DNA from: Promethearchaeota archaeon
GTDB taxonomy: Archaea; Asgardarchaeota; Lokiarchaeia; Sigyniarchaeales; SOKP01
Direction of reading: 5' to 3'
Assembly (NCBI GenBank): GCA_016839745.1
Contig: JAEOTS010000085.1
Span: forward strand, 1 to 30,330
DNA: 30,330 nucleotides
Positions 4,364 to 30,207 of the stretch are shown in pieces. Each line of letters opens with the position of its first letter. Position 1 is the stretch's first letter. The position numbers and the translations under genes were made by a program. The notes beneath the pieces are model-generated. The model had not been told where the DNA came from. It did not search any database and saw nothing but the letters and a program-made list of their open reading frames with translations.

Positions 4364-7300
4364 TTATTCTTTATCCTTAAGACCTTTTTCTTCTAATAAA
4401 GAATCTAAATCTGTCGCGGGTTTGGGTTTTTCTTCTTCTACGATTTTTTGTTTTTTAAGTTTCTTTTTACTTAGCTTTTTCTGTTTTTTCGTCGGAGTTT
4501 CCATTATTTTTTCTTCCGTATCTTCGGATGGTAGTTCGCTCACAGATACATATTTTCCTCTCCTTGGTTTGGTTTTAATCGGTTCTTCAAAAGGAGTTTC
4601 AATTTTCTTGATTGTTCTTCTTACGTAAATAAACATCACTGCCCACACTACCACGAAAATACCAATCATTATTAATGTAAAAAAGCCGATGATTAAATTA
4701 TCAAGAACAGCGTCATAGATATCAAATATTTCAGAGGCTTGAAATGTTACTTCCTCTTGAGTTATTTCATTTCTTACACCGATAGATACTAAAATGCTCA
4801 TTTGATCGATAGCTGGTATGTCAATTTTTATCAATATCTCCGTAGTATCTCCCGGTTTAAACTGTGCTAGCGTAAAATAATCGATCTGCACAATACTATA
4901 CGTTAAAACGGGAGAGATTTGAATAGAAATATTAGAACTTAGCACATTGAGCTCAGAATCACCTATGTTATTTAAAGTTATCTGTATCATCGATTGACCG
5001 TTTTTAAACAACTGATCTACATTCGAGGTTATCCGTAATGATATGTCGTTAAATGCTCGAAACAAAGTTACGGTAATGTTACGTGAATTTGTTAAAGTGT
5101 ATTGATCCCCATGCCAAGTTAACCGAAATTTAAACTGGTCTTCACTCGGTAATGAAGATGTATCGATTTCAAAATTTGTCGTTCCATTAATATCTGCGAT
5201 TTGAGTCGAAAGGTTTTCCCATAAATCATTATCTAAGAATTGGAGTGTAATATTTTCGTTTGGAATTTCATCACCAAACTCAGTACTTAAAACAGAACTT
5301 ATGTTAAATTTTTGGCCGTATATTGGTGTTTCAGGATCAATTACGATATCTGAGAATTTGCTATTTCTTTTCAAGGAGAACGAGCTAATGAATTGGTTAT
5401 AGCTGCTAACGAAATTTCTATCAAATACATTAATTACGAATGTTGTTTGATTTGGTAGGTATAAACATTCGTCTCTTTCGAAAGGTTTTAATATTCCAGC
5501 GGCTGAAATTTCAGTATTAGACTTCAAAGCAATTATATAACCTTCAAACTCAGCTTGGGTGCTATTTATTATTAATGAATACTCGCTACTCTCAAAAGTA
5601 TCAACTTCATGACTTTCTCCGTTATACTCAAAGAAAATCGTGACCTTCGTTTTTGCTCCTCCTTTTCGTATAGGAGCATTGACACCTTGCCAAATTCCAT
5701 CTCCAAACAGGGTAGGTATTGTTAGATCAACAAAGAACTCTTGTGTATCAGCACCATTAGGATCAATACTAGGATTTAACGTTTTAATCCCTGAAGTTTT
5801 TTCAGCAATTATCCATTCTTCATTAACTAAAGATACCAATTGAACATTTAATTTCACTTCTAATTCAAGAAATCCGTGTAAATTACGAATTCGAGTGCCA
5901 ATTCTAATATCTTCGCTAGGATTCAAGATTGTTTCATTTTGTAAAAAAGTTTCTACTAGTATCGGTATTTCTTCTTCGTTTATTTCTTGAATATATTCTT
6001 GATTAACATCGGAGTCATTAACAGCGTAAAAATCAGGATAGTACCCATCATCAGTAACATTTACAGTAGCAATTAATATTGAAAATTCTGTAAGACCTAT
6101 TTTATGTACAAATGCATCCAGCGTGTTTTGGTCAGAGTCTGGTTCGTAATAGAAATCGTTCATATCGACATCGTAAGCATCAATATATAATTTAAGCTTT
6201 TGACATCCAATTGCGGAGCCGTTCTCCCAAAAGAAACCTAAATAATAGTTTCCAAGAAGTGGTGTATCTTGAGTAACATCTAGAATTGTTTGGTTGTTAA
6301 AATCGTATATGAGATAATTACCATCGATGACTCCAACCCCAGAATTCATTTCAGCTCCAGGAAATTTAGTGCTATTATCTGGATAAAATAAAATTGCATT
6401 AGCATTTCCCGTAGAAGGCGGCGCACCACCAGGTCCTTGAATGTCAAGGCTAATAGAGATGTTATCTCCGTACATAAAGCCATTTGTTTCCCACAATATG
6501 TCGTCATAGTTGATGTAACTATGCGTATCATAAATGAGATTACTACTATTTAGCTCCAGAGAATACTGACCGCTTATACCATTAACAATGTAGTCTGGAA
6601 CAGGTGTATAATCATATGAGGGTTTGGAGAGTAAACTGCGTTCCTCTCCTGTTTTGTTCAATACTTCTCCGTAAATACCGTCATAATTCGGATTTGTTAA
6701 ATTGTGCGCACTATAATCGTTCGGATACACAAACCAAAATTCATGGAAGTTCCAATCGTTTAGGTTCGGATCTGCGAGGTTTAGCGTGAAATTTAACTGC
6801 CATTCAGGAGTTGTATCATACGATACATTATAGTAACTATTTGCGTTTTCTATCCAATATGCCTTTACTGAATAACTAACATTAAATTCAAATCCTCCGA
6901 TAATACTTTGATTCCAAGCAAGATCTATTGGAAAATTGTAAGAACCATCATTGATAATATCAGTTGTAAAGTTGCTATTCCAATGACCTTTTCCCCAAGT
7001 TAGGGATGAACTTACATCATAAGGAGGATCGCTAAAAACGCTATTATTTAATGGAATATCTTGAATTTTTAATGTGTCTTGACTATCATAAGGGTTAGTA
7101 AAGTCTGAAGGCATATATGCCCTAGTTACATTCAATCTAAATGCGGCTGCGTCTAATATTTCGGAGAGATATAATGGTGATGAGGGCACTTGTTTTTTAG
7201 CGATATTCCACGTAGATCCACTGTTTTCAGAAGTCCTTAATTGATGATCTACTTGAGAATCTGGATCACCATAGGTTTGCCGGGGAAGCGTAACTAAACT

Positions 7301-8551
7301 AAAAATCTCTTCAGTATGATTCGATGCTATCACTACAAAATAGTTGTAAAGTTTAAGGTTTTGAGTATTTGCATGATTAAATTCGAAGTAGGATAAAGAA
7401 TCTCCATGGTATTCGTTAAAACCAATTATCATCGAATCAATAAGTTTAGCATTATTAGGTTCTAGATTGTTTGTAGCTAAATTTAGTTGAGTTCGTGGTA
7501 TTGTAGCATTTGCTTCGTATAAAGTTATGTTTAATTCTGCGTTTACGGCTTTAGTGAGGTTTAAAGTTCTAATCCAGGCGTAAAAACCGTTAATCGTCGA
7601 ACTTTTTCCCTTTAAATCAAATTCTAAAGCCACTTGCTTGCTTTCGGAGATTGGCAAATCAAATCCATAAGTAGACGCCATTTCGAAATCTCTTAATGTA
7701 AAGATAAAATCAGGAGAATCGTATTTTTGGAGGTAAAATTGTATTTGACTAATATCAGAGGAGTTAATATAATTTAGATTTTCATTGGCAAATCGTTCTT
7801 CGAAGGGTTGGATGCCTAAACTGTAATTTATAAACATCCTATCAGTTACATTTATCCAAGTAAAGTCAGAGATATCAAACATTTTTAAGGTTAAAAAGGC
7901 GCTACTATTAAGACTACTTGAAAATTTTGAAATTAAACCTAATATCAGAGATCGATCGAAATTAACATCGAATAAAGATCCATCGTAGATAGTACTAGCA
8001 AAATCTGAGGAAATTGTAAAATTCAGTATACCACCTGAAGATTCTAATCGCAAATTATTAAAATTTATAGGATCAAGGTTAGTTCCAGTATTAATACTCA
8101 TAGACGAAGTACCTTCATTAAAAACAAATTTTATAAAATCATCTGCATATAACGCGTCCGTGTCTTCAATTACATAATCAGTTGTGAAGTTGTTCTGGAA
8201 TGTGAAATTGAAATTTCCGTATGTCAAGTATGTTGGATCCGTAGTTGACATAGAAGGAATGTCAAAAGATTCTTGATTATTATCGTTCGAGTCGGAACTA
8301 TTTAACGCGTAAATTCTAACATCTTGATTGTCCCCTGAACCCGTAATATAGTAATCTGTTAGATACGGGTCAATATCAGAAAGCTTAACATTATTATCGT
8401 TATTTAACCAATTTTGGTCTTGGTTATTATTTGCATCAAAATTAAAATTACTAAAAATCTGAATATTTGCTAACAGCATAAAAAACATAAATATGCTTGC
8501 CACTATAATTCTTTTAACATCCTTTTTTCGTCGTTGAATCAAAAAAACCAA
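4364..8551 (-). CDS. Large membrane-anchored cell-surface protein (beta-rich, Ig/CARDB-like C-terminal domains)
   Basis: 1395 aa. N-terminal signal-like segment, Asn/Asp-rich ectodomain with many N-x-S/T sequons, one C-terminal TM (LIIGFF...MFIYVRR) and a charged cytoplasmic tail of about 80 aa. Confidence 0.85.
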   Translation of the reverse strand: MVFLIQRRKKDVKRIIVASIFMFFMLLANIQIFSNFNFDANNNQDQNWLNNDNNVKLSDIDPYLTDYYITGSGDNQDVRIYALNSSDSNDNNQESFDIPSMSTTDPTYLTYGNFNFTFQNNFTTDYVIEDTDALYADDFIKFVFNEGTSSMSINTGTNLDPINFNNLRLESSGGILNFTISSDFASTIYDGSLFDVNFDRSLILGLISKFSSSLNSSAFLTLKMFDISDFTWINVTDRMFINYSLGIQPFEERFANENLNYINSSDISQIQFYLQKYDSPDFIFTLRDFEMASTYGFDLPISESKQVALEFDLKGKSSTINGFYAWIRTLNLTKAVNAELNITLYEANATIPRTQLNLATNNLEPNNAKLIDSMIIGFNEYHGDSLSYFEFNHANTQNLKLYNYFVVIASNHTEEIFSLVTLPRQTYGDPDSQVDHQLRTSENSGSTWNIAKKQVPSSPLYLSEILDAAAFRLNVTRAYMPSDFTNPYDSQDTLKIQDIPLNNSVFSDPPYDVSSSLTWGKGHWNSNFTTDIINDGSYNFPIDLAWNQSIIGGFEFNVSYSVKAYWIENANSYYNVSYDTTPEWQLNFTLNLADPNLNDWNFHEFWFVYPNDYSAHNLTNPNYDGIYGEVLNKTGEERSLLSKPSYDYTPVPDYIVNGISGQYSLELNSSNLIYDTHSYINYDDILWETNGFMYGDNISISLDIQGPGGAPPSTGNANAILFYPDNSTKFPGAEMNSGVGVIDGNYLIYDFNNQTILDVTQDTPLLGNYYLGFFWENGSAIGCQKLKLYIDAYDVDMNDFYYEPDSDQNTLDAFVHKIGLTEFSILIATVNVTDDGYYPDFYAVNDSDVNQEYIQEINEEEIPILVETFLQNETILNPSEDIRIGTRIRNLHGFLELEVKLNVQLVSLVNEEWIIAEKTSGIKTLNPSIDPNGADTQEFFVDLTIPTLFGDGIWQGVNAPIRKGGAKTKVTIFFEYNGESHEVDTFESSEYSLIINSTQAEFEGYIIALKSNTEISAAGILKPFERDECLYLPNQTTFVINVFDRNFVSSYNQFISSFSLKRNSKFSDIVIDPETPIYGQKFNISSVLSTEFGDEIPNENITLQFLDNDLWENLSTQIADINGTTNFEIDTSSLPSEDQFKFRLTWHGDQYTLTNSRNITVTLFRAFNDISLRITSNVDQLFKNGQSMIQITLNNIGDSELNVLSSNISIQISPVLTYSIVQIDYFTLAQFKPGDTTEILIKIDIPAIDQMSILVSIGVRNEITQEEVTFQASEIFDIYDAVLDNLIIGFFTLIMIGIFVVVWAVMFIYVRRTIKKIETPFEEPIKTKPRRGKYVSVSELPSEDTEEKIMETPTKKQKKLSKKKLKKQKIVEEEKPKPATDLDSLLEEKGLKDKE

Positions 8552-10173: not shown

Positions 10174-11358
10174 GTGCAAGATTTAATAAAGATAGAAGAC
10201 TGCGTTATTCTTATAGATTCTTCAAGATCTATGGTAAGGAAGGATTTCAAACCTAATCGATTATTAGTTGCATTAGAAACCGCAAAAAGGTTTATTCACG
10301 AGAAATTCCTAATAGATCCTAAGGATCGTATAGCCATACTCTCGTTTGGGGCAAATGTCGCTAAATTAATTCCATTTAGTTACGAAGAAGAAAAATTATT
10401 AAAAGCTTTAAACAGAATTCAAATTTCTGGGAATGGCTCGCTTAATGAGGGTCTCGCATTTTCAGTTCAATTTTTAGTTGGAGAGGTGCGAAAATTAGGC
10501 GGTAAAACAAACAGGATTTTCATTATCTCTGATAATAAACTAGAATATAGTGATAAAATCCAGAAAATAATTGAAATAACAAAAGGTTTGGGAGTATATG
10601 TTGATGTGTGTCAATTAGGGAAAACTGAAGACCATTCTCAAAGTATTTTGAAGAAAATAGCTAAAATTACTGGAGGTCAATATGGTTTTTTTAACAATTC
10701 AAAAGCTTTATTAAATGCTGGAGCCTCATACGCTTCGAAAAAAGAACTTAAAACTTCTACCGATTATTTTTCACCAGATAAAAAAAGCGAAATAGCTCCA
10801 TTGATTAGCGAGATAGCTTTACAACTCAGAAGACCTAATCTATTAGATATTCGTTTAATGATGAGTAGCAAAGAACGGGGTCAAGAAAAATGCCAGATTT
10901 GTCATTCTGTGAAAGCTCAAATAACAGGAGCCGATTTTTATAGCGAGGGACGATATTGCCCATCTTGTGAAAGACCGATGCATCTTTCTTGTGTTGCCAT
11001 GTGGGCAAAGAAAACAGAATATAAGGAAAATGTATTCAGATGCCCGTTTTGCTTTTTCTTATTAGAACTTCCTCCTACCGCATCAAAATTAGTTGAAGAA
11101 AAGGTTGATGTAGAAGAGCCAAAAATAAAATTAATTGATGAAAGCGGGATAGATGTCACAAAAATGACTCTGATTCCAGAACTTGAAATCGATAAAATCG
11201 ATGCATCTTGTACGTTTTGTCATAGCATATTTTTAGGCGATTATAAAGTATTTCAATGCGAAAAATGTGGAGCTTATTACCACGAACCATGCTTAAATAA
11301 AATGCACAACGAAATCAATGCGTGTAGAAATTGTGGAGCGCAGATTACTTTCAAATGA
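10174..11358 (+). CDS. VWA (Ssl1/Rpn10-like) domain protein with two C4HC3 RING/PHD-like zinc fingers; TFIIH p44/Ssl1-like architecture
   Basis: IDSSRSM (MIDAS DxSxS)...DFKPNRL...ITGGQY VWA domain. Fingers CQIC-CPSC-HLSC-CPFC (about 10891-11052) and CTFC-CEKC-HEPC-CRNC (about 11209-11334). Confidence 0.8.
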   Translation: MQDLIKIEDCVILIDSSRSMVRKDFKPNRLLVALETAKRFIHEKFLIDPKDRIAILSFGANVAKLIPFSYEEEKLLKALNRIQISGNGSLNEGLAFSVQFLVGEVRKLGGKTNRIFIISDNKLEYSDKIQKIIEITKGLGVYVDVCQLGKTEDHSQSILKKIAKITGGQYGFFNNSKALLNAGASYASKKELKTSTDYFSPDKKSEIAPLISEIALQLRRPNLLDIRLMMSSKERGQEKCQICHSVKAQITGADFYSEGRYCPSCERPMHLSCVAMWAKKTEYKENVFRCPFCFFLLELPPTASKLVEEKVDVEEPKIKLIDESGIDVTKMTLIPELEIDKIDASCTFCHSIFLGDYKVFQCEKCGAYYHEPCLNKMHNEINACRNCGAQITFK

Positions 11359-13543: not shown

Positions 13544-14770
13544 TTATAATTTCAAAGAAAATATTGGATTTAATCGAGCAATGATATCTCCAAGTTCCAG
13601 TTGAATCGTTTTAAGAATTACGTCTCTTCCTCTGTACTCGAATTGTAATTCCTTTACATTGCGGACGATCTTTAACTTATTTTTATCTTTTAACAATTCA
13701 CACGCAAAATACCTCTGGTGTTTATATTCCAAAACTTTCTGCACCTGACTAATGTCAGGTAACATATATCCTCCACCATGGGGTAATAAATTCGCATTCA
13801 TTAATAGATCTAATAATTCAAATTTTTCTGCTCTTTCCAAGAAACCATTATTTTTTAATGTAATCTTTGAAAAACTATTGCGTCCTCTAAAAAGGTATCC
13901 TGCTAAATCTGCCCGTAATGTGGTAGGATAGATATCCCCCTCATCGGTACAGTTGGATCCTAAATACATATTATTGTAATCTTTCAAAAATTGGTGAGGA
14001 GTATTGCATATTACTTCGAAATCAGAACTGAACAAATTCATAGCTATTATCTCTCTTTTTACATTTGAAAAATTTAACGCTTTTTTGTTAAATTCAAGAT
14101 ATTCTTTTGCCTCAGAATCAAGCAATATATATTGATATCCAAAATCAGTGGGTTCTTTGATAGCATGATCCATTAGAGATTTTGAATTGTCAATGTACAA
14201 GCCTAAACCATACCTATCGTCTCGAAATTCCGGAGCAGAACCATGTATCATAAAAATATATGGAGGTAAATCTATGTCTGAGAGGATTTTCGTTTCATAA
14301 CAGTTAATGAAGTGATTAGATACCCCATAATCCCAATTTAATAACACTTCTCCACTGTATAATTCTGTACTCTTTACATTATCTATCTTTTTTATGATTT
14401 CATAAGCATCTGGTAATACTTCTAACCCGCCTACCAATATTCCACAGCAATTAGGTTTAATATTTAAAAAAACAATTTTATCGTTTCCAGAGCCCCAATT
14501 TAATCTCCCTCCATAACCAAGCCCGGAATTCCATCGGAAATTGTTCCTCGAAATAGTTTCGTCAGGAGAGGAGATAAAAGTCGCCTTAGGTTCAAATCCA
14601 TATTTTTCTTGAATGAGCTGAAATTGTGCTAAACCGTATTTCATATTCGCTTTGCATAGTTTTGAAGCGCCGTCGTTTAAACCAGTAGAAAAAATGTAAT
14701 CATTTGCTCTTTGAAGTAATTCTATTTTAGACAATTCAGAGATTTTATTGGATAACCTAATTGAACCCAT
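13544..14770 (-). CDS. Divergent RtcB-like RNA ligase family protein
   Basis: Colinear RtcB-like motifs SPD, GYGG, NCCG, GVSNHF, IHGS, PHQ and PHGGG. Several canonical residues are altered. Confidence 0.6.
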   Translation of the reverse strand: MGSIRLSNKISELSKIELLQRANDYIFSTGLNDGASKLCKANMKYGLAQFQLIQEKYGFEPKATFISSPDETISRNNFRWNSGLGYGGRLNWGSGNDKIVFLNIKPNCCGILVGGLEVLPDAYEIIKKIDNVKSTELYSGEVLLNWDYGVSNHFINCYETKILSDIDLPPYIFMIHGSAPEFRDDRYGLGLYIDNSKSLMDHAIKEPTDFGYQYILLDSEAKEYLEFNKKALNFSNVKREIIAMNLFSSDFEVICNTPHQFLKDYNNMYLGSNCTDEGDIYPTTLRADLAGYLFRGRNSFSKITLKNNGFLERAEKFELLDLLMNANLLPHGGGYMLPDISQVQKVLEYKHQRYFACELLKDKNKLKIVRNVKELQFEYRGRDVILKTIQLELGDIIARLNPIFSLKL

Positions 14771-16483: not shown

Positions 16484-17716
16484 ATGATATTACACGAAAA
16501 TAATGAAGCAAGATTACTCAACATAATAAGATGGGGAAATAATCCTTTCAAAAAGTTTGTAAGTACAAGTGAAATTAAAGAAGAGTTAGATTTAGTAAAA
16601 TCCAGAGATAATCTTATTAGAAATATCAAATCTATTATCAAACAAAACAATAACTTTATCCTTCCTATCATCGGTGATGTTGGTTCCGGGAAAACTCATC
16701 TATTTTGGGCTTTAAAAAACAATCTTTATTACTACAATACTTTTTACATTTCGCTGGTATCGGTTTATAGGAAGTTTTTTTATAATATTTACTCTGAATT
16801 CATTGAAAATCTTGGAATAGGACCTTTAAAATTCGTTGTAAATCAATTATGTGAAAATTGGGGCGCTTTAGAGAAGAAATATGGGTTTTTCCACGTAGTC
16901 GATGTTGAGAAAGTAAAGCAGACAGCCATCAAACAATTATCTACGAAATATTGCGAAATAGAAGCCGAAACCTTAATCGATGCAATAAATGGAATTATAA
17001 CTCATCAATTAGATCCGTATAAAAAAATTGAAGCTGAACGATGGTTATTGGGTAAATTAATGGACGCAAAAGAACTATCAACCTTAAAACTCTCTCACGA
17101 TCTTCATAAAGGTAAAAATGCTTATATTCTGTTGAGGTTACTTATTGAAAACTCTAAATTGGGAACGATTCTATTTATCGACGATTTCGAAAAAATAATT
17201 AAAATAATGAAACCACAAGACGACGCCCCCGAAGAAATATTCGACCCAAGTTGGTTATATGGAACTGAAAAGTCTCCAAACGATATCGCTTCAGAGAAAA
17301 TCTTCACTAAAATAATTCAGTTGCAAAAGATTGAAGGATTACGTATAATAATTACTTTGAAATCGATTGAGTCCTTAGAACAAATCAAGAAAAAATATCA
17401 AGACTTCGATTCAGAATTGGTGCCATTAATCAAAGAACCTCTTTTTCTAAAGAATTTTAATGAAGATGACATATTTGATTTCTACACGAATACTATGAGT
17501 AAATTCTATAATAGTATTGAATGCAACGAATTTACGCAAGTTTTTGAAGATCGCTACTTCCCTTTAAATAAACTCGCGCTAAAAAATATTTTCGACCACA
17601 CTCAAGGAAATCCCAGGACATTAATTAAAATTTTAATCAAATATTTTAACGAGCTAATTGATGACGAAGAAGATCTCGATTTAATCTTAAAAAAATATGA
17701 AAATTTTGATATTTAA
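16484..17716 (+). CDS. P-loop AAA+ ATPase (BrxD/DUF2791-like)
   Basis: Walker A GDVGSGKT, helical insert with ERWLLG, Walker B ILFIDDFE and sensor-2-like GNPR. Confidence 0.75.
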   Translation: MILHENNEARLLNIIRWGNNPFKKFVSTSEIKEELDLVKSRDNLIRNIKSIIKQNNNFILPIIGDVGSGKTHLFWALKNNLYYYNTFYISLVSVYRKFFYNIYSEFIENLGIGPLKFVVNQLCENWGALEKKYGFFHVVDVEKVKQTAIKQLSTKYCEIEAETLIDAINGIITHQLDPYKKIEAERWLLGKLMDAKELSTLKLSHDLHKGKNAYILLRLLIENSKLGTILFIDDFEKIIKIMKPQDDAPEEIFDPSWLYGTEKSPNDIASEKIFTKIIQLQKIEGLRIIITLKSIESLEQIKKKYQDFDSELVPLIKEPLFLKNFNEDDIFDFYTNTMSKFYNSIECNEFTQVFEDRYFPLNKLALKNIFDHTQGNPRTLIKILIKYFNELIDDEEDLDLILKKYENFDI

Positions 17717-17743: not shown

Positions 17744-19123
17744 TTACAGTTCTTCTTGGGGTTCTTCTACATCATTTGTCTCATCTGAATTTTTGAGTTC
17801 TTCTATATCTTCTATTTCATCATGGATTAACTTCTTATTTTTGAGGTAATTTTGAAATTCCCAATCAGTAACTTTATTAGAATCGAGCGCACCGCTATTT
17901 ATAAGATAAGTTTTGAAATCGGTGACAATTTGAATGACTTCTTCCTGCTTGAATAACTTTTTCACTATCAAACCTTTTTTCTCTAATACGTACTCTGAAT
18001 AAAACCAATAAAAGATTATTGTAATCAATAAAGCTACAAAATTGTTCGTTAAATTGACTTGGCTACGACTTGTATAAGTTCCAGAGATTGAACCAGCTCC
18101 AGTTATCATAACAATTTGACCTTCAATATATATTAATGTGAAAGCAAATAGAAAAAAGGCTAAATTGTTGGGATTAAAAATCCGAAATTTAAAAGTTCTG
18201 CTACCTAAACCTCGAATAACTAAAACTGCAGTAAAAATCATCAATAACACGTCGATAACTGCCCGAAAAACATCAATACCTAATGCTTCAGTAACGCTCC
18301 TAAAGGAATTAATAAAACTAAATGATCTATACCAAGCAATTAACCAAATCAAAATGAAAAAGACCGAGGAAAATATATTCTGAGTATCGTTTTTCACGCT
18401 TTTTATGTGTAGAAAAACTAGTCGGTAGGAAATTAAGAGGATTAAAACGTACATCGCAATATTCCATCCATTAAACCACCAGAGAGGTTCTAAAGAATCA
18501 CCTGGGTTTTGAGGTTCAAAAAATGGAATGAATGCAAAATAGGTTCCCAACTGAGCTAATACCGGTACTAAAAGAGCCAAGATTAAAAACATAACGCTAA
18601 AGGTCTTATTTCTTTTTGACTCCCTATTTGGCAGTATCTTAGCATTTACTCTATCGGAGATATGTTCAAAACTAGACTTTAAAAAAAAGATTTGAGCCAT
18701 GTTCCACCCAAAGTATATTAATATGTAAAAACCCGGAAGAATGTAATCCCATCCCAAAAATTCAATAGGAATCTGCGTGGAATTCCCAAATAAAAAATAC
18801 AACAGAATTACAATAGAACTAAAACCTAAAGAACCAATAAAAATCAGTGTTTTCTGCTGATCTAAGCTTTTTGTAAAAAGATACCGATCAAATTTAGAAT
18901 ATCCACCCAGTAACATTAATATAATGAAAGAGAAAGAGAAGGTCGTAGCTAAAAATAAACCTATATTGCCTAAGCTTGTGCTACCTAAAAAGAAAAACAG
19001 TATTAGGATTAGAACTTCAATGAAAAAGAATATGGTATACGCAATATGACTCGGATTAAAAATTTTATGGAAATATTTATCGAGTTTAGTGCCTATTTTT
19101 GAGCGCCTCATTGGTTCGGGCAT
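17744..19123 (-). CDS. Polytopic membrane protein (about 10 TM) with acidic C-terminal tail, unknown function
   Basis: 459 aa with repeated hydrophobic segments; GGAG SD upstream. Confidence 0.8.
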   Translation of the reverse strand: MPEPMRRSKIGTKLDKYFHKIFNPSHIAYTIFFFIEVLILILFFFLGSTSLGNIGLFLATTFSFSFIILMLLGGYSKFDRYLFTKSLDQQKTLIFIGSLGFSSIVILLYFLFGNSTQIPIEFLGWDYILPGFYILIYFGWNMAQIFFLKSSFEHISDRVNAKILPNRESKRNKTFSVMFLILALLVPVLAQLGTYFAFIPFFEPQNPGDSLEPLWWFNGWNIAMYVLILLISYRLVFLHIKSVKNDTQNIFSSVFFILIWLIAWYRSFSFINSFRSVTEALGIDVFRAVIDVLLMIFTAVLVIRGLGSRTFKFRIFNPNNLAFFLFAFTLIYIEGQIVMITGAGSISGTYTSRSQVNLTNNFVALLITIIFYWFYSEYVLEKKGLIVKKLFKQEEVIQIVTDFKTYLINSGALDSNKVTDWEFQNYLKNKKLIHDEIEDIEELKNSDETNDVEEPQEEL

Positions 19124-22065: not shown

Positions 22066-22809
22066 ATGGCTAAAAAAAGAAAAAAACGAGTAAAACGAGG
22101 TCATCCAATAGCAATTCTTATTGGATTACACGATAATGACGCGATATTTTGGAGAATATTCAGTGAGACTATTAGACTGCACTCAAAAATCAATCGCGGA
22201 AGGAAGAGAAGAAATCAAGATAAGAAGCAATTATTTCATTTTCACGAGGAAATCGTTAATACTTTAAGACCTGTAATTAAAGAAGGGATAAGAAGCGTAA
22301 TATTACTCTCCCCTCCAAAAGAAGAATATTCAGATGAGTTTCTTAATCACGTTAATAAACATCATTCATGGTTAATAAAAAATGGAGGTAATCAGGTTGT
22401 TTTTTCTAAGATCATAGGAAATCAAGCAAAAACTCAAAAGGATGTATATTACCTAAAAACGCAAGAACATTTTAAAGGCATAGTTGATAAAACTTCGAAT
22501 CAAGAAGGTTTGTTGATATTAGCAGAACTAGCAAAAATTATAAATAAAAATGAAAAGTTCTCAAAGATTCTTTATACATGGAGAGAAATCGATCATGAAC
22601 TTAAACTTATAAAACAAAATCCTAATTTATCTAAACCAAATTATATTATTCTCACCGAAGAATTTCTAAAAAATCCAAAAAATAGAAATAAAACACATCG
22701 AATTTTACAAATCGCAAAAAATCTGGAGATTAAAACTAAAATCGTCAGTAAAGAATCCGAGGCTGGTGTTATCGTTGACAAATTTGGAGGATTAGTATGT
22801 TATTTTTAA
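22066..22809 (+). CDS. Pelota/aRF1-like protein with middle and C-terminal domains only
   Basis: AILIGL...FHEEIV...VILLSP...F (domain 2) and IILTEEFL...TKIVSKESEAG...FGGLV (domain 3, L7Ae-like). No N domain and no GGQ. Confidence 0.65.
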   Translation: MAKKRKKRVKRGHPIAILIGLHDNDAIFWRIFSETIRLHSKINRGRKRRNQDKKQLFHFHEEIVNTLRPVIKEGIRSVILLSPPKEEYSDEFLNHVNKHHSWLIKNGGNQVVFSKIIGNQAKTQKDVYYLKTQEHFKGIVDKTSNQEGLLILAELAKIINKNEKFSKILYTWREIDHELKLIKQNPNLSKPNYIILTEEFLKNPKNRNKTHRILQIAKNLEIKTKIVSKESEAGVIVDKFGGLVCYF

Positions 22810-22855: not shown

Positions 22856-23092
22856 TTACTTTACAGCTTCAAAATACATGTGCCAGAGTTCATCATCGTC
22901 GAGAAAATCCGTCCCTAAGTGTTTGTGCTTAGTTTTTGCTAAATCACGTGGAACCGATTCAGACGCGGGCTTATAATCTGTTATTACTTTTAAGACGGTA
23001 CCTGGTCGCATTTTCATAAGTTGTTTCTTGGTTTTTAACGCAGGTACTGGACAAACTAAGCCACACACGTTTAATTCTTGGTCGAAATTCAT
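22856..23092 (-). CDS. tusA: TusA/SirA family sulfur carrier protein
   Basis: LNVCGLVCPVP (CPxP), GTVLKVITD; 78 aa; GAGGT SD; 39 nt downstream of the preceding gene. Confidence 0.88.
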   Translation of the reverse strand: MNFDQELNVCGLVCPVPALKTKKQLMKMRPGTVLKVITDYKPASESVPRDLAKTKHKHLGTDFLDDDELWHMYFEAVK

Positions 23093-23131: not shown

Positions 23132-25597
23132 TTAATCTTCACATACAGGTGAAAACATTGGCTCTTCTAAACCCGGTTCAATGTTCATCTCAATTTGATT
23201 CAATTGAACCAATCGTAAAGCTTCATATCGAACTTTTTTGGTCTCTAAATTTAAGGTTTTGGAAATGTTGCTAATCGTAGTCGGACCTTGAAGGGTTACG
23301 TAATCTAAGACTTGTTGTCGGGGAGTTCTTTCTAAGATTTCCATTTCTCTCTTTGATTTCAGATTGATTGCTTTCTTCAATTCGTCCTCATTAACGCTAC
23401 CCTCTTCAAATAATCCTTGAGTTATGGATCTTTCAATAATTTCTTTACCTCTTTCTGTCCACGCTACGACGGTTGTAAAGCCTTGCTTGGAACCAACCTC
23501 ACCAGCCGTGAAATCAGAATAAATTGCAGGAAAATCCTGACAATGTGAACAGTAATGATTGCAACTTAAACACCGTCTAGCTTCGGCTAACGCCATTTCT
23601 TCGGTAAACATTGCTTCGATTTCCTCAAAATTCCATTGGATGTCTTCAGTAGCTTCTTCTAAAGATTCTGGTTTTAGTGAATAATCCTTAGGAGTTCTTG
23701 TAATTCCTTCGAAAAACATTCTATTTTGCATATAACGCCCCTCTGATAAATCTTCTCCATTTAAATATCGATCTATAGAAATAGCCGCTTCTTTCCCGTG
23801 GGCTATTGCCGCAATTGCAACTGCTTTCGAGTGAGTAATGGTATCTCCACCAGCAAATACTCCCGGAATATTGGTTTCAAAAGTTATAGGATCAATCTCG
23901 ATTTTATTATGTTCTTTTTTGAGTTTATTACCCGTAGCAATGTCAATTAAATTAAAATCGACAGCTTGGCCAACGGCGATAACTATAGCATCTGCTTTGA
24001 TCTCATAGTCCGAACCCTCAACTTTATTGATTGGGCGTCTACCAGTATCGTCAGCTTCTCCCCTTGCGATTTTGTAGCTTTTTAGCACCAAATCATCGCC
24101 TCCCCCTTCAGAAATTTTTGATACAGAAGTTTCAAAATGATATTCCATGAATTTTAATTCTTCTTCAGGAATCTCACGCAGAACGAGTTCAAGATCTTTT
24201 TCATTCATAATGTCGACGAGATGGATTTTTTCTGCACCTAGCCTCAGAGCAGTCTGTGCAACATCAACTGCTACAGGGCCACCGCCTATTATTCCAATTG
24301 TTTTACCTTTAAACTCTTGCTGCTTCTGCCAATCTCGATATTTCCTATCGATAAGGAAATTAATAGCAACATGTACATTAGGGAGTTCTTCTCCTTCTAA
24401 GTGCAATGTCCGTGGTTTATACTGACCTGTTGCTATAAAAACGGCTTCATATCCATCATTTTTTAAGTCCTCAATCGTCATATCCGGTCCTAATGGTTTA
24501 TTAAATAGAATTTCCACGCCAGCTTTTTTGATCATCTCAACATCATAATCTAATACATAATCAGGTAACCGGAATTGAGGCACTCCGTATCGAAGCATAC
24601 CGCCAGTGTGATCAGTTTTTTCAAAAATTGTTGGAGTATAACCTTTAAGCGATAAAAAATATCCTGCTGTAAGACCTGCAGGTCCAGCGCCTATTATCGC
24701 AACTCTCTTACCTAATTTCTTCTTACTCTTCACACTCTTTTTTACATCTTGCTTAATTTCGTACTCTGTAATGAATTTTTTTAGTTCCCTGATAGCGACA
24801 GGATGATCCGAACCGATTAAAGTACACCCGTGTTCGCATTCGTGCGTACAAATTCTTCCACATATAGATGGTAGTGGATTGTCATTGCGAATCAAATCTA
24901 CAGCTTCCAGATATTTACCTTCTCGTATTAATGAGATGTATCCTTGAGCATTAACACCCGAAGGGCAACCTCCACAGCATGGCGAGCAGACCAAACCACG
25001 ATCTGTTTCTGCAGTTCTCATGCTTGAGTTACAGAATAGTCCTATTTTAAGGATCTCTCGGTTCATTTCTTCTCCCATTTCAGAAGCTCCTCTTATCTCA
25101 CATGGAACTCCAACGATGCCTACCGGTTCTAGGTTATCTCCAGTTACCTCTACTAGCTTCTCTAAGACCCCAGATCTTCCATATACGACTCCTGCTTTTT
25201 GAACTACATCTTCTGGATCGGTTACTCTGCTTGCTTTAGGCAAATCATCAACATTTTGGACCATCACGACTTCAGATAACTCCTTTTCCTTTAAGAGTTG
25301 TTTTGTAATTGTAGTAACAAATCCTCCGCTTGACGCTTTCTCCAATATTTCAGAGTCCTTACTTCTTAAGGAATAAATTCCTAAGGGTTGAAGCTCTTTA
25401 AATTTTTTCTGCAATACTTGAGGGCAGTTTTGGTAACATTTACCACAATCTTGTCCTTCTCTTTCAAGGATGCAATAATCTTTAAGGGTCGGTCGTAGCG
25501 TTTCCATTTCAATATGTTTGCAGTATCCCGCGCATAGACCACAACCTTGGCATAAGCCCGCCTCAATAATTTCACTTCTTAATAATTCGAAACTCAT
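23132..25597 (-). CDS. Fusion oxidoreductase: ferredoxin + FrhB/FdhB domain interrupted by a GltD/NfnB-like FAD/NAD(P)H module + C-terminal wHTH
   Basis: In order: CQGCGLC and CGKCYQNCP; SSGGFVT, VGVPCE, IGLFC (FrhB); CP...NPLPSICGRIC...C...C (Fer4_20); GAGPAG, GGGPVAVD, GVFAGGD, EARRCLSC; CSHCQDF...SDFTAGEVGS...TTVVAWTERG (FrhB C-terminus); helix-turn-helix tail. Confidence 0.85.
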   Translation of the reverse strand: MSFELLRSEIIEAGLCQGCGLCAGYCKHIEMETLRPTLKDYCILEREGQDCGKCYQNCPQVLQKKFKELQPLGIYSLRSKDSEILEKASSGGFVTTITKQLLKEKELSEVVMVQNVDDLPKASRVTDPEDVVQKAGVVYGRSGVLEKLVEVTGDNLEPVGIVGVPCEIRGASEMGEEMNREILKIGLFCNSSMRTAETDRGLVCSPCCGGCPSGVNAQGYISLIREGKYLEAVDLIRNDNPLPSICGRICTHECEHGCTLIGSDHPVAIRELKKFITEYEIKQDVKKSVKSKKKLGKRVAIIGAGPAGLTAGYFLSLKGYTPTIFEKTDHTGGMLRYGVPQFRLPDYVLDYDVEMIKKAGVEILFNKPLGPDMTIEDLKNDGYEAVFIATGQYKPRTLHLEGEELPNVHVAINFLIDRKYRDWQKQQEFKGKTIGIIGGGPVAVDVAQTALRLGAEKIHLVDIMNEKDLELVLREIPEEELKFMEYHFETSVSKISEGGGDDLVLKSYKIARGEADDTGRRPINKVEGSDYEIKADAIVIAVGQAVDFNLIDIATGNKLKKEHNKIEIDPITFETNIPGVFAGGDTITHSKAVAIAAIAHGKEAAISIDRYLNGEDLSEGRYMQNRMFFEGITRTPKDYSLKPESLEEATEDIQWNFEEIEAMFTEEMALAEARRCLSCNHYCSHCQDFPAIYSDFTAGEVGSKQGFTTVVAWTERGKEIIERSITQGLFEEGSVNEDELKKAINLKSKREMEILERTPRQQVLDYVTLQGPTTISNISKTLNLETKKVRYEALRLVQLNQIEMNIEPGLEEPMFSPVCED

Positions 25598-26835
25598 AAT
25601 AATTCCTCACTAATTTTAATTTTCGTTATAATACCCGTTTGATCAAGGGTATATTCTATCGAACCGTTTTTATAGGTTCCTTCCACCACATCAAAAACAT
25701 GGGCTTTATACTCGTTAAAGTCATCGTTAGGATCGATAATTGACTTGAATCCACCATAAAATACATTTGATAAGTTCATGTTACCAGCAATAAATCGAAT
25801 TTTATCTGTAAGTTCTCTATATTTTGGTGCATCTTCGCTCTCAATGGCTTTTAGTAAATCAGTTTCTAATTGTAAAAGCTCATTTCGGTATTTTTTTGTC
25901 TGTTCGCTTACTTCTATTTGGTTTGCTTTCTCGTAGGATTCAATGAATTTAAGCGTTAACGATATTGATTTAGCGCCACCTAAAAGCCCTGTTATCAAAG
26001 GAATCTCTTCGATCAGTCTACCAATAAAAACGTCTTCCAACAAAGATCCCGAAGAAGGGATTCTACCTTTTGGAAAACCTGAAGTAGGTAATGTAAATCT
26101 GAAAAAATTTCCGACCACATCAGGTAAACTATTGGTTAGATCGTCGTCCTCGTCTCCTAATTTGTCAGTTGCTCCCTTAACTGAATGCTCCGTTGCAATC
26201 TCTATGTTCCCAGCTAAGGTTCCGAACATTGCTAACATGCGAATTCCAGAACGATCTATGCTTGGTTTACACCCTCTACAAGGAGTATTGTAATCAATAC
26301 ATTTTTCTTTACATTCAGTAGCAGTAAAACCACTACATAGAAATCCTAAGTCGTTAAAACAAGTTTCAGAATCTTCTAATTCAATTTGTCTATTGATTGA
26401 TTCTAAATAGTCACAAGTTGCCTTTCTGGAACAAACCTGACATAAACTTTTTAATTTCGGAACTCCTGTTCCGTCAATAGTTAGTTTTAATTCTTCAATT
26501 TCGCCTAAACATCCATGAACATTTTTTGAACCTTCAATTAAGCTTGATAAAGGTGTAACATCGTGACCTTTTTGATTTGCTAAAGCAAATACTCCCCCAG
26601 TAGCCGTACAATCTCCATAGGCAATAATCTTTTTTGAATTGTTCTTTATGCGTTCAATGTTCTCTAAGTCGTTAGGGAGTAAATAGCCAGTAATAACTGA
26701 TACATCGACATTTTCTCCTTTCCAGCTCTTTGGATCGGAAACAAATTCTACTTTGTATTTAACCCCTTCTTTTAATAACAGGGATTCATTGAAGCACTTT
26801 TTACATCCATTAAATTGGAATACTTTAACATCCAT
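25594..26835 (-). CDS. mvhG: MvhG-like hydrogenase small (Fe-S) subunit with a C-terminal extension resembling a degenerate large-subunit fragment
   Basis: GCKKC, AYGDCTATGG, HGC, CQVC...CFNDLGFLC...C...C...PCRGC and DVVGNFFRFTL motifs, plus about 150 extra Cys-free residues. Confidence 0.75.
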   Translation of the reverse strand: MDVKVFQFNGCKKCFNESLLLKEGVKYKVEFVSDPKSWKGENVDVSVITGYLLPNDLENIERIKNNSKKIIAYGDCTATGGVFALANQKGHDVTPLSSLIEGSKNVHGCLGEIEELKLTIDGTGVPKLKSLCQVCSRKATCDYLESINRQIELEDSETCFNDLGFLCSGFTATECKEKCIDYNTPCRGCKPSIDRSGIRMLAMFGTLAGNIEIATEHSVKGATDKLGDEDDDLTNSLPDVVGNFFRFTLPTSGFPKGRIPSSGSLLEDVFIGRLIEEIPLITGLLGGAKSISLTLKFIESYEKANQIEVSEQTKKYRNELLQLETDLLKAIESEDAPKYRELTDKIRFIAGNMNLSNVFYGGFKSIIDPNDDFNEYKAHVFDVVEGTYKNGSIEYTLDQTGIITKIKISEELL

Positions 26836-27277
26836 CTTTTATCGTCCCCTTTTCAGTAATTGCAGTTGTTAATCGATCTATAATATCTTCGAAATCGCCT
26901 ACAGCGGTCTCACCTTCCGCAGCTCTCGAGGTATATTGGTTTACAAATTGGTCGCTGTAACCCAACTCTTTAAAGACTTTTTTCATCAATTTTATTCTAT
27001 GCATCGAAATTACATTACCATTAAAAAAATGACATGCACCTAAGCAACATCCGACGCAAGCAACAGCGTCCGCTCCGTTAGTTAACGCTTCCATGATCTG
27101 AATTGGTCCAACTTGACCTGTGCATTGTACTCTAATTATTCTTATCGCAGCGTCGTACGCCATTCTAGCTACGCCCGCAGTGTTTGCTGAACCTTGACCA
27201 CACTCGTTACACATAAAAACTACAATATTATTAATCCTTTCCTGAACATATTCGTCAGGTACTTCGCAATTGTTCAT
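26825..27277 (-). CDS. mvhD: MvhD/FlpD [2Fe-2S] subunit
   Basis: FMCNEC, IRIIRVQCTG and GADAVACVGCCLGACHF..GN motifs. ATG at 27277 overlaps the hdrA stop (ATGA), so it is preferred over the track start at 27283. Confidence 0.88.
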   Translation of the reverse strand: MNNCEVPDEYVQERINNIVVFMCNECGQGSANTAGVARMAYDAAIRIIRVQCTGQVGPIQIMEALTNGADAVACVGCCLGACHFFNGNVISMHRIKLMKKVFKELGYSDQFVNQYTSRAAEGETAVGDFEDIIDRLTTAITEKGTIKDGC

Positions 27278-29289
27278 TCGCAAACAGCACCCCCACCAGA
27301 TACAGCAGTTATTTCCTCATATATTTGATCATCTGTGAAATTAATCAATTGAATTGCTTTCGTTGGACAACTTGGCATACACATACCACACGATCTACAC
27401 GCAATTTCGTTAACAGTAGGTCTTCCATTTTCGTCAATGTCGATTGCTGCTGGAGCGCAAATAGTTTTACACATTCCACAATTAACGCATAAATCGTAAT
27501 CTATGGATGGTACCAACATTTCTTTTTCTATGTAGCCTTTTACTAAAGGTGCAGCAGCTAACGCAGCGGCACTTCCCGCATGAGCTACAGTTTCTGATAT
27601 GTCTTTTGGTCCTTGAATCGCTCCCGCTAAGAAAATTCCTCCTTTACTACTCAATGTAGGGTTCATCTTAATGTGAAATTCTTTTAAGAATCCTTCCTTG
27701 GAACGTAAAACTTTAAGTTTAGAACCAAGAGGCCCTATTCCTTCAGGGGGAACCATCGCTGCTGACAATACAACCATATCAGCATTTAATTGTAAAGGAG
27801 TCATGCTTAGTGTGTCTTCTACAATAACTTTAAGCTCTCCACTTATTGGGTCTTTAACAATTTCTGAAGGTCTTCCTCGGATAAATCGAACTCCAACTTC
27901 TTGAGCAGATTGATACATTTCTTCAAAATTTAATCCTGGAGTTCTTATATCTATATAACAAATCGTCACATCGGTGTCAGGATACATTTCTTTTACAATT
28001 CGAGCATTTTTTATCGCGAATTTACAGCATACACCAGTACAATATTTATTTCCAACCTGCTCGTTTCTACTACCCACGCATTGAATCATTACAATGCTCT
28101 TAGGTAGTTTACCATCAGATGGTCTTAATACTTCAGAATTGGTAAGGGAGGTAGGTGATAACATTCTTTCCAATTTTAATTGAGTAATAACATCTTCGTA
28201 TCCCTCTTGTCCATAATGATAAGGCTCAATTTCCGTAGGATCATATTCACTATATCCCGCAGCAACTATTATTGAGCCAACTTTAACCGTCTTAGTTTCA
28301 GGTTGCATCGAAAAATCAACCGCTTGGACTGGGCATATGTTAATGCATGTATTACATTCAATACAAGCCTTCTTGTCCCTCACGAATGTTGCGGGAATTG
28401 CTTGTGGATAGGCTTTATAAATAGCGTTCCTCATAGACATTCCTTTATCCCATTCACTGGGAACCTCTACTGGACAGTGTAAAGAGCACTCACCACATGA
28501 AGTACAATTATCCTTCACATACCGAGGCTTAATTTCGATTTGAACTTCAAAATTTCCTAAGGATCCCTCAATGCTTTTAATTTGAGCATTTGTATAAAGC
28601 TCAATTAATGGGTGATTCGCTACTCCGTTAGTTAACGGTGAAATTGAACATTGTGGACACTCTAATGTTGGAAAAGTTTTATTTAATTGCGTCATATGCC
28701 CACCAATTGTCGAATTCTTCTCTACTAAAAACACTGGTATTCCTAATTCCGCCAAATCATTTGAAGCTCTAAGACCCGCGATACCCGCACCAATAACTAA
28801 TGCTGCTTTAGTGGTCGAAATTCGTCTCGTTTCCACATCTTCAAGTTTTCGAGCTCGATTTACTCCAGCCTCGACTAATCGAAGTGCTTTTGCAGTTGCT
28901 TTTTCCTCGTCTTTTTTATGAACCCAACTGCAGTATTCTCGAACGTTGACTTGTTGGTGTTTGTGTTTATTAATACCTTCTTCGGCAATTGCTCTCGCAA
29001 ATGTCTTTCCGTGTTGATTTTTAGAACAACTTGCAACTACGGTTCTATTAACCCCTAACTCTTTAATTGAATCCTTTACCATTTGAACGCCGGGTTTTGA
29101 ACACATAAACATGTAATGTTCTGCTTTTACAACATTTGGTAAATTTTTTGCGTAATCTGCTACTTTTGCGACGTCCACAGTTCCAGCAATGTTGTGACCG
29201 CAATGACATACAAAAACCCCAATTCTGGGTTCTTCAGATTCGCTCGATTCAACTTTACTTTTTTCCATTTTTTCTTCTTTAACGGCCAT
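27274..29289 (-). CDS. hdrA: Heterodisulfide reductase subunit A (FAD, Fe-S)
   Basis: RIGVFVCHCGHNIAG, VNVREYCSWVH, GAGIAG, KTFPTLECPQC, inserted ferredoxin, IQCVGSR...YCTGVCC, GPKDI and C-terminal ferredoxin. Confidence 0.96.
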   Translation of the reverse strand: MAVKEEKMEKSKVESSESEEPRIGVFVCHCGHNIAGTVDVAKVADYAKNLPNVVKAEHYMFMCSKPGVQMVKDSIKELGVNRTVVASCSKNQHGKTFARAIAEEGINKHKHQQVNVREYCSWVHKKDEEKATAKALRLVEAGVNRARKLEDVETRRISTTKAALVIGAGIAGLRASNDLAELGIPVFLVEKNSTIGGHMTQLNKTFPTLECPQCSISPLTNGVANHPLIELYTNAQIKSIEGSLGNFEVQIEIKPRYVKDNCTSCGECSLHCPVEVPSEWDKGMSMRNAIYKAYPQAIPATFVRDKKACIECNTCINICPVQAVDFSMQPETKTVKVGSIIVAAGYSEYDPTEIEPYHYGQEGYEDVITQLKLERMLSPTSLTNSEVLRPSDGKLPKSIVMIQCVGSRNEQVGNKYCTGVCCKFAIKNARIVKEMYPDTDVTICYIDIRTPGLNFEEMYQSAQEVGVRFIRGRPSEIVKDPISGELKVIVEDTLSMTPLQLNADMVVLSAAMVPPEGIGPLGSKLKVLRSKEGFLKEFHIKMNPTLSSKGGIFLAGAIQGPKDISETVAHAGSAAALAAAPLVKGYIEKEMLVPSIDYDLCVNCGMCKTICAPAAIDIDENGRPTVNEIACRSCGMCMPSCPTKAIQLINFTDDQIYEEITAVSGGGAVCE

Positions 29290-30207
29290 CTATATTGCCT
29301 CCTCTTCTTTTTTAACTTCTTCGCCACCAAATATGTAATCCTTTCCCATCATTTGATATTGAAGACCAACAAATTCTTGGTCCATCCCCATACAATATGC
29401 AACAAGTTGGGAAAGATGAATTACTGGATAATCGTAATTACAGCTTTTATTCTTGTTTAAATAATCTTGTCCCGTTTCAAATTGTAAGTGACAGAAAGGA
29501 CAAATATCTAAAATAAAGTCTGGTTCTACCTCGTCAATATTTTTCATCTTTTCTCCAAAAATTGTCATGCTCGTATCGCCGGAATACGCTTTTACGCCCC
29601 CACCAGCACCGCAACATGTAAGTTGTTCTTTGAATCTGACTGATTCCACTCCTAAAACTTCAATAAATTCTTCAACAATCGTCGGTCCTTCTGAACTCTC
29701 AATCTCTCGAATTCTTGTTGGTTTTAGAAAATGACAACCATAATGTACAGCCGCACGCGCGTTTAATTTTCTTGTAATTACTTCTTCTATACCCCATGGA
29801 CCTATTTCGTATCCTAACACTTCGGCTACATGACGCACATCAATCGTACCTTGAAACTCGTAATCTCCGAGCAGTTTTAATTTTTCATTTACTAATTCTC
29901 GTTGTTCTTCATTCTCTTTTAAATGTTTATTAATCTCTTGGAGTGTTCCAAAGCACCCATTACAAACTGTAAGGATATCGGCATCAAGCTTTTCAGCTAT
30001 ACACAAGTTTCTGGCACCCGCCACCATCCAATCAACCTTGTTAAAGGATCGAAAGACCCCTGGAGCTGGACAACAACTGGCGCGTTCCATGTCTAAGATC
30101 TCATACCCTAGTTTTTTCATTACAAACTTCGTTGCTTTTTCAATCGCAGGATATCTATTCGGCATAAGACATCCCAGAAAAAACGAAAATGTTTGTTCTT
30201 TTGCCAT
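29290..30207 (-). CDS. hdrB: Heterodisulfide reductase subunit B (two CCG domains)
   Basis: FFLGC, CCPAPG, TVCNGC, HYGCH, CCGAGGG and CPFC motifs. Confidence 0.96.
   Translation of the reverse strand: MAKEQTFSFFLGCLMPNRYPAIEKATKFVMKKLGYEILDMERASCCPAPGVFRSFNKVDWMVAGARNLCIAEKLDADILTVCNGCFGTLQEINKHLKENEEQRELVNEKLKLLGDYEFQGTIDVRHVAEVLGYEIGPWGIEEVITRKLNARAAVHYGCHFLKPTRIREIESSEGPTIVEEFIEVLGVESVRFKEQLTCCGAGGGVKAYSGDTSMTIFGEKMKNIDEVEPDFILDICPFCHLQFETGQDYLNKNKSCNYDYPVIHLSQLVAYCMGMDQEFVGLQYQMMGKDYIFGGEEVKKEEEAI

Follow-up and report, generated by a model that had tools for sequence, protein, structure and literature searches.

What is a [NiFe]-hydrogenase small subunit doing in an Hdr operon that has no separate gene for a large subunit, and what is the long C-terminal extension that it carries? 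The question is raised by contig JAEOTS010000085.1 of a Promethearchaeota archaeon (assembly GCA_016839745.1), of which the whole 30,330-nt stretch analysed here is referred to as the window. Coordinates are positions in the window, and all genes of the operon are on the minus strand. The gene concerned is an open reading frame (ORF) of 413 residues at 25594..26835 (-), which was characterised from the ORF list, its translation, its homologues and an AlphaFold2 (AF2) model. A first-pass annotation made from the letters alone had proposed that this MvhG-like protein has a relic of the [NiFe] large subunit, catalytically dead, fused to its C-terminus. This proposal is backed by a profile alignment, a profile search of the PDB, a reverse search with a hidden Markov model (HMM), two structure searches, and synteny. 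We put at roughly 80% the probability that the fused gene encodes a hydrogenase-derived electron wire, which no longer makes or uses H2 and in which the large subunit survives as a collinear remnant.

The first part of the protein, residues 1–255 (26071..26835, -), is recognised by Pfam as Oxidored_q6 (PF01058), with 45.3 bits against a cut-off of 27 over residues 24–109. Among PDB sequences, phmmer puts first the Mvh-Hdr complex's MvhG (5odc_E), with E 6e-14; the aligned region spans query residues 93–255 and ends at residue 295 of the 299-residue chain, 4 short of the MvhG C-terminus. The domain is nearer to MvhG than to FrhG, for which the same search gives an E of 0.57. The AF2 model of the full protein, made from an alignment of 60 homologues, has a predicted local distance difference test (pLDDT) score of 92.2 and a predicted template modelling (pTM) score of 0.91. 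In a VIA comparison, residues 1–259 of this model match 5odc_E with Z 20.5 and rmsd (root-mean-square deviation) 3.3, with 245 of 298 residues aligned at 27% identity. Twelve cysteines are the cluster ligands: C11, C14, C76, C109, C132, C135, C159, C167, C175, C179, C186 and C189. The last eight of these, the medial and distal ligands, align with cysteines of MvhG, and all twelve are kept in 60/60 homologues, except for C175 (59/60). These results show that residues 1–255 form an MvhG-type small subunit that ligates three [4Fe-4S] clusters: proximal, medial and distal.

The ORF does run on past the normal end of MvhG, as the first-pass annotation stated: the sequence that it quoted for that end, DVVGNFFRFTLP, is present in the translation, followed by LEDVFIGRLIEEIPLITGLLGGAKSISL and, at the terminus, by VVEGTYKNGSIEYTLDQTGIITKIKISEELL. 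The extension (residues 256–413; 25597..26070, -) consists of the 158 residues beyond the endpoint of solved MvhG, and comprises a short linker followed by the large-subunit remnant. We found 357 full-length homologues, 411–425 residues long, and every one of them has the extension. Its mean pairwise identity among homologues is 43%, compared with 46% in the core, and it is therefore under constraint similar to that on the core. It contains no Cys, as had been noticed at the outset, and one His; there are no conserved Cys or His columns in it across the 60 homologues. In the source databases the fused protein is annotated variously as ‘hypothetical’, ‘F420-reducing/non-reducing hydrogenase subunit’ or ‘F420-reducing hydrogenase gamma subunit’.

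Sequence comparison of the extension with large subunits was based on a reference set of 30 [NiFe] large subunits from Asgard genomes. Alignment by hhalign of the family profile of the extension with this set gave a probability of 93%, a P value of 3e-7 and a score of 54.5, with extension residues 7–134 placed on 43–203. The controls were a reversed profile, which scored 16.3, 150 column shuffles (14.3 +/- 2.7, maximum 27.1) and 150 shuffles of 10-column blocks (19.9 +/- 3.9, maximum 35.9), so that the native score lies 9–15 standard deviations (SD) above the shuffles. The alignment of the L1 motif that the first-pass annotation had given holds on real sequences: in this alignment, residues 272–289 (GRLIEEIPLITGLLGGAK; 25969..26022, -) pair with GRpvEElPrIvtRICGvC, and the same remnant is picked up in a HMMER alignment to FrhA 45–105. 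Within it, R273, E277 and I281 are invariant in two homologue alignments, and G287 is invariant in one and nearly so in the other. Further along, residues 350–363 (AGNMNLSNVFYGGF; 25747..25788, -), the remnant of the large-subunit GGxxxHPxxxxxGG loop (FrhA: IAGGEAIHPSNPRIGG), pair in hhalign with GGRxxHPxxxxPGG. HMMER also matches this loop, as a third stretch which is non-significant and lies at the collinear place. G351, S356, N357 and G362 are invariant in this segment. A search with the extension-only profile against 177,635 distinct PDB sequences (hmmsearch) places FrhA first, with E 0.0024, at the RVCGIC region. In the reverse direction, a large-subunit HMM run unfiltered against the 2,633 ORFs of 74 loci that contain the fusion ranks fused proteins 1–14, aligning HMM positions 43–106 with residues of about 267–331; these matches are weak, the best having an E of 0.001.

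Structure searches with VIA covered 48,161 representative chains. In the top 50 rows for the full model, seven cover residues 263–413 or end there, and all seven are [NiFe] large subunits or their homologues from complex I, Mbs or NDH. The match of residues 263–413 to FrhA (6qgt_A) has Z 11.8 and rmsd 2.6, with 150 residues aligned to 40–404 of the 437-residue chain; the other six rows are 5aa5_C, 7zm7_C, 8qby_D, 6u8y_l, 5yxy_A and 7wfg_H. For a model of the extension alone, the top 14 rows all belong to the large-subunit or NuoD (49-kDa) family, with 141–154 of the 158 residues aligned. They include FrhA (Z 10.2), the Hyb large subunit (9.7) and MvhA (5odc_F, 8.1, residues 14–158 on 44–403 of 447), while unrelated helical bundles appear from Z 6.4 with at most 103 residues aligned. 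Foldseek on the same model returns only members of the large-subunit family in its first 45 rows. A separate search of PDB structures with the full model returned small-subunit chains and nothing on the extension. Thus, remote homology and a common fold over the retained part were both found in the profile-profile and structural comparisons. What gives the structure tests their weight is that only one family is matched, that the coverage is almost complete and that the sequence tests agree.

Both of the motifs that hold the Ni ligands are missing. RxCGxC reads LLGGAK in the hhalign and HMMER alignments, as the first-pass annotation had noted; G286 and K289 stand at the Ni-ligand Cys positions of L1, and G287 matches the Gly of CGxC. 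The DPCxxC pair is absent altogether, since the protein stops after a late hairpin: the structural alignments end at MvhA 403 of 447 and at FrhA 404–407 of 437. With RxCGxC replaced and the DPCxxC helix missing, the relic therefore cannot hold a Ni-Fe site, and as judged from the aligned motifs it is catalytically dead.

The fused gene is part of a compact operon, in the order hdrB, hdrA, mvhD, the 413-residue ORF, an FrhB::GltD gene and tusA. The first gene, hdrB, encodes 305 residues with CCG domains (29290..30207, -; PF02754, E 2.4e-36), and hdrA encodes 671 residues with Pfam Fe-S and FAD domains (27274..29289, -). The 152-residue mvhD (FlpD) product (26825..27283, -; PF02662, E 7e-31) is encoded by a gene that overlaps the 5' start of the fused gene by 11 nt. 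Downstream, the stop codon of the fused gene and the ATG of the FrhB::GltD gene share bases (ATGA). This gene (23132..25597, -) encodes an FrhB homologue of 821 residues into which a GltD-like NAD(P)H/FAD module has been inserted: the module (Fer4_20 and Pyr_redox_2, residues about 190–613; NCBIfam PRK12771) lies between the N- and C-terminal Pfam domains, FrhB_FdhB_N and FrhB_FdhB_C. The final gene is tusA, encoding 78 residues (22856..23092, -; PF01206, E 1.5e-18). The Pfam assignments of the neighbouring ORFs thus supply the adjoining mvhD, hdrA and hdrB typical of a group 3c Mvh/Vhu-Hdr system, and likewise the FdhB/FrhB-type flavoprotein and the MvhD homologue beside Hdr that are typical of an Elp-type system (described below).

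This arrangement is widely shared. A pattern scan of 185,579 species, with one genome per species, found 74 loci with the fusion, all of them in Asgard archaea and mostly in Promethearchaeota/Lokiarchaeia. The fusion is present in both cultured Lokiarchaeia, Promethearchaeum syntrophicum MK-D1 and Lokiarchaeum ossiferum, as well as in Thorarchaeota, Sigynarchaeum and Harpocratesius; of 151 Asgard genomes sampled, 17, from two families, have the extension. An FrhB-type gene lies within 6 kb of the fused gene, and follows it, in 74/74 loci. Within the same distance are HdrA and MvhD (70/74 each), TusA (65/74) and HdrB (62/74). The large-subunit profile finds no true large subunit within 6 kb in any of the 74 loci, and there is no large-subunit partner gene in the window. 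MK-D1 has the same operon, and so do Thor-type lineages, in which a plain FrhB (345–389 residues) takes the place of FrhB::GltD.

What, then, would the fused protein do? MvhD and the wire are complete, the catalytic subunit has been lost, and translationally coupled to the wire is an FrhB-type flavoprotein, of the kind that oxidises F420H2 in Frh, Fdh and Elp; in Lokiarchaeia this flavoprotein includes a GltD-like NAD(P)H/FAD module. The complex therefore most likely takes its electrons from the flavoprotein and not from H2. Electrons from NAD(P)H, or from a deazaflavin in the lineages with plain FrhB, would enter via FrhB(::GltD), and would then probably pass through the fused subunit to MvhD and on to HdrA's bifurcating FAD (flavin adenine dinucleotide). 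HdrBC would reduce a disulfide or a persulfide, possibly on TusA/DsrE carriers that are encoded alongside. We infer, by analogy with the Elp system of methanogens, that the whole would act as a nickel-free electron-input arm for HdrABC.

The Hdr operon of MK-D1 and of Thor-type lineages has genes of the TusA, DsrE, DsrH and DsrE2 types in its flanks (L048 3619-5439; L050 10333-11668; L049 3438-4201; L051 3334-4069 and 10399-10629). The flanking TusA, DsrE and DsrH genes suggest a protein-bound sulfur substrate for HdrBC. Such a substrate for Hdr has been proposed in a preprint on another Asgard culture (10.1101/2025.07.22.663070).

The retained piece would be the part of the large subunit that packs on the small subunit, and it may stabilise or cover the proximal-cluster face. 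The AF2 models fit this: the C-terminal strands of the extension have pLDDT 93–98 when folded with the core and 39–57 when the extension is folded alone (overall pLDDT 72, strands below 57). That the strands are confident only together with the core points to an intramolecular interface, and is in keeping with a relic that covers or braces, as an integral part, the former interface of the small subunit. The putative role as a cap that shields the proximal cluster, which the first-pass annotation put forward, is reasonable.

Alternatively, the relic might serve mainly as a docking platform rather than as a cap, with FrhB(::GltD) bound at the site of the deleted two-thirds and feeding the proximal cluster directly. 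The default expectation is docking at the other end, given that in Frh, FrhB docks at the distal end of FrhG. A proximal site is nevertheless suggested by several observations. The 60 homologues have preserved the ligands of the proximal cluster as well as those of the other two, as would be expected if the whole wire is in use; the FrhB-type gene invariably comes after the fused gene, here with the ATGA overlap; and MvhD accepts electrons at the distal end of the wire, according to the summary of Wagner 2017 given in PMC9012536. We regard a platform of this kind as possible, although we do not favour it. We advance with equal caution the corresponding picture of electron flow, in which FrhB(::GltD) on the freed face might inject electrons from NAD(P)H or deazaflavin into the proximal cluster, and the three-cluster chain would be run by a flavin instead of a Ni-Fe site.

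The layout of the remnant bears on a second claim of the first-pass annotation, namely that the extreme C-terminus resembles the first hairpin of the large subunit and that the relic is therefore circularly permuted. The C-terminus forms a three-stranded β-meander (residues about 380–410; 25606..25698, -), with strands assigned by DSSP at 386–389, 393–397 and 402–408. A likeness to the first RxEGH hairpin does exist but is weak. For that hairpin alone hhalign gives a score of 16.8 and P 1.5e-3; with the whole large-subunit profile, extension residues 120–154 fall on 6–40 with P 0.2, and HMMER gives the same pairing at -1.6 bits. The late EAPRG...D..G.I hairpin (L4) matches slightly better (20.7, P 2e-4), and the two hairpins of the large subunit are alike in pattern. 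On sequence the identity of the meander is thus weakly determined; the predicted structure favours collinearity. Sequential structural alignments place 144–150 of about 151 residues, running from about 44 to about 403 of the large subunit, and their ending there implies that the strands are not at the position of the N-terminal hairpin. Permutation is unneeded, and we consider it unlikely that the meander is the first hairpin moved to the end. The relic is shown to be a collinear remnant (residues about 263–413), which corresponds roughly to MvhA/FrhA 44–200 plus 390–403, or about one third of the large subunit. What has been lost is the hairpin at the N-terminus, about 185 residues from the middle and the DPCxxC helix at the C-terminus.

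Several results weigh against a large-subunit origin of the extension, and in part favour the rival view that it is an unrelated helical domain with a chance or convergent likeness to large subunits. Pfam finds no match of NiFeSe_Hases (PF00374) to the extension, even at E 10. A phmmer search with the extension against 1.84 billion representatives returned 19 clusters; each was its own fused family or a fragment of that family, and none was a large subunit. Identity of the extension to large subunits is only 15–23%. Foldseek gives no row at E <= 0.001, the best having an E of 0.057, and Z values of 10–12 are in the grey zone in which helical bundles can match by arrangement alone. We note that a search with a single sequence is too weak for a relationship as distant as this one. 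In addition, an unrelated domain would have to reproduce the L1, GG..HP..GG and late-hairpin motifs in collinear order, exceed the shuffled controls by the margin given above, draw its best structural matches only from the large-subunit family at near full length, and sit at the position of mvhA in the operon. We therefore consider this explanation very improbable.

MK-D1 and L. ossiferum each encode one true large subunit, far from the fused operon. The MK-D1 protein (448 residues; L131 8655-12783, in a genome of 3.73 Mb) is encoded beside an HdrB-like gene and a gene for a 457-residue MvhG-like protein. The same locus also has a 183-residue ORF with a weak HdrA match, and TusA about 2.5 kb away; its order differs from the mvhDGA of methanogens. 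In the window's own genome, whose assembly is 89% complete, we found no large subunit (PF00374) and no other Oxidored_q6 genes. We considered and rejected the idea that the organism is free of hydrogenase, because of the incompleteness of the assembly, the presence of the [NiFe] maturation protein HypD at a contig end (C63:6-611), and the large subunits in a genome of the same genus. The 11% that is unassembled probably contains its true hydrogenase locus. Pairing in trans with such a large subunit, by which the fused protein would go on supporting a working hydrogenase, is extremely unlikely: true large subunits are indeed encoded elsewhere in the searched relatives and in both cultured Lokiarchaeia, and HypD is present here, but the relic fills the sequence and fold positions of the large subunit's core, the true large subunits have their own adjoining small subunit, and none lies within 6 kb of the fused gene at any of the 74 loci.

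As a separate observation, many Asgard [NiFe] large subunits of 434–462 residues (L006, L008, L028, L030, L033, L034, L037-L043, L046) keep RICGIC but lack DPCxxC and end in ...KLPEPMVKT. Possibly they resemble VhuA/VhuU of Methanococcus in being split, so that a separate small peptide would carry the C-terminal ligands.

Canonical Asgard clusters have mvhD, mvhG and mvhA abutting on one strand, and the relic follows the MvhG domain exactly at the canonical place of mvhA. We made a tree of small-subunit domains, a small sample rooted only at the midpoint, in which 18 fused proteins were joined by 5 canonical ones encoded beside mvhD and mvhA and by 4 others. All of the fused proteins are on one side of a branch with 99/100 support and a long stem, and this clade groups with 3c-type small subunits, away from the small subunits of other groups. 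The tree shows that the fusion arose once, close to the Asgard group 3c small subunits. We infer a single in-place fusion of adjacent mvhG and mvhA, followed by decay of the catalytic part. FrhA is the top match of the relic and was considered as its source. We set this aside, since both the gene order and the small-subunit domain agree with Mvh; the relic itself is too degenerate to place.

How does the fused system compare with known ones? It shares with group 3c Mvh-Hdr the MvhG-like domain, the order mvhD-mvhG-(mvhA position) beside hdrA/hdrB, and the three-cluster wire. It differs in that MvhA has been cut to about one third and fused to MvhG with the loss of both Ni-ligand motifs, and in that an FrhB-type flavoprotein gene follows. 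A functional MvhA with a Ni-Fe site appears, from the sequence, to be replaced by a Cys-free relic. H2 is therefore not expected as the donor, given the reduced MvhA and the FrhB-type gene in its stead.

With FrhABG (group 3a; PDB 6QGR/6QGT, 4OMF) the fused system has in common that FrhA is the top profile and structural match of the relic, and that the neighbour is of FrhB type; it differs in its small-subunit domain, which is much nearer to MvhG. The order of the frh genes is A-D-G-B, in which the large subunit does not come after G.

By analogy, the closest functional precedent is Elp of Methanothermobacter marburgensis, which replaces Mvh on Hdr under nickel limitation (PMC12350162). Its ElpA is a truncated FdhA that lacks molybdopterin, ElpB resembles FdhB and oxidises F420H2, and ElpC is homologous to MvhD. 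ElpABC-HdrABC is likewise a nickel-independent input arm to Hdr in which a truncated, cofactor-less catalytic subunit is accompanied by an FdhB/FrhB-type flavoprotein and an MvhD homologue. However, ElpA derives from formate dehydrogenase, while the remnant here derives from hydrogenase, and Elp has neither a small-subunit wire nor a fusion. Elp has been characterised biochemically and structurally, whereas the fused Asgard system is known here from sequences and models.

A further comparison is with NuoB/NuoD of complex I, MbsL of Mbs/Mbx and NdhH of NDH, which also descend from [NiFe] small and large subunit pairs and have no Ni-Fe site; the structural matches of the extension include chains of NuoD, MbsL and NdhH. 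The parallel with NuoD drawn in the first-pass annotation is fair as regards loss of the NiFe site. It does not extend to the architecture: NuoD, MbsL and NdhH are full length and membrane-bound, with the active-site cavity reused for quinone or sulfur and only the proximal cluster in NuoB, whereas the fused protein is soluble, has lost two thirds of the large subunit, and keeps three clusters.

Elsewhere in the window, a 394-residue protein (10174-11358, +) has a VWA/Ssl1-like domain and also matches, weakly, the PHD-finger family, a pairing that on sequence is reminiscent of eukaryotic TFIIH Ssl1/p44. A 1395-residue ORF (4364-8551, -) has no Pfam match at E <= 1e-5, and nor do the ORFs at 13544-14770 (-), 16484-17716 (+), 17744-19123 (-) and 22066-22809 (+).

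Full-text searches of the literature found no description of a fusion of MvhG with a large-subunit relic. Group 4, the membrane-bound line, is known to include [NiFe]-hydrogenase descendants that have no nickel (complex I, Mbx/Mbs, NDH); the literature searched contains no soluble example from group 3 that has been cut to a third and joined to its small subunit. If the wire is indeed fed by a flavin, the conversion of a hydrogenase to an oxidoreductase, known from complex I, would have taken place a second time, independently and in a soluble enzyme. Considered as a counterpart of Elp, it would represent a second route by which the donor arm of Hdr has kept a metalloenzyme scaffold after loss of the metal site. 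A flavin-fed wire would also make part of the ‘Mvh-Hdr’ inventory in models of H2 syntrophy independent of H2. Where MvhG and MvhD beside Hdr are read as an Mvh-Hdr that depends on H2 or evolves it, metabolic reconstructions may therefore overcount hydrogenase-linked Hdr complexes, in a lineage that is central to the hydrogen-syntrophy models of eukaryogenesis.

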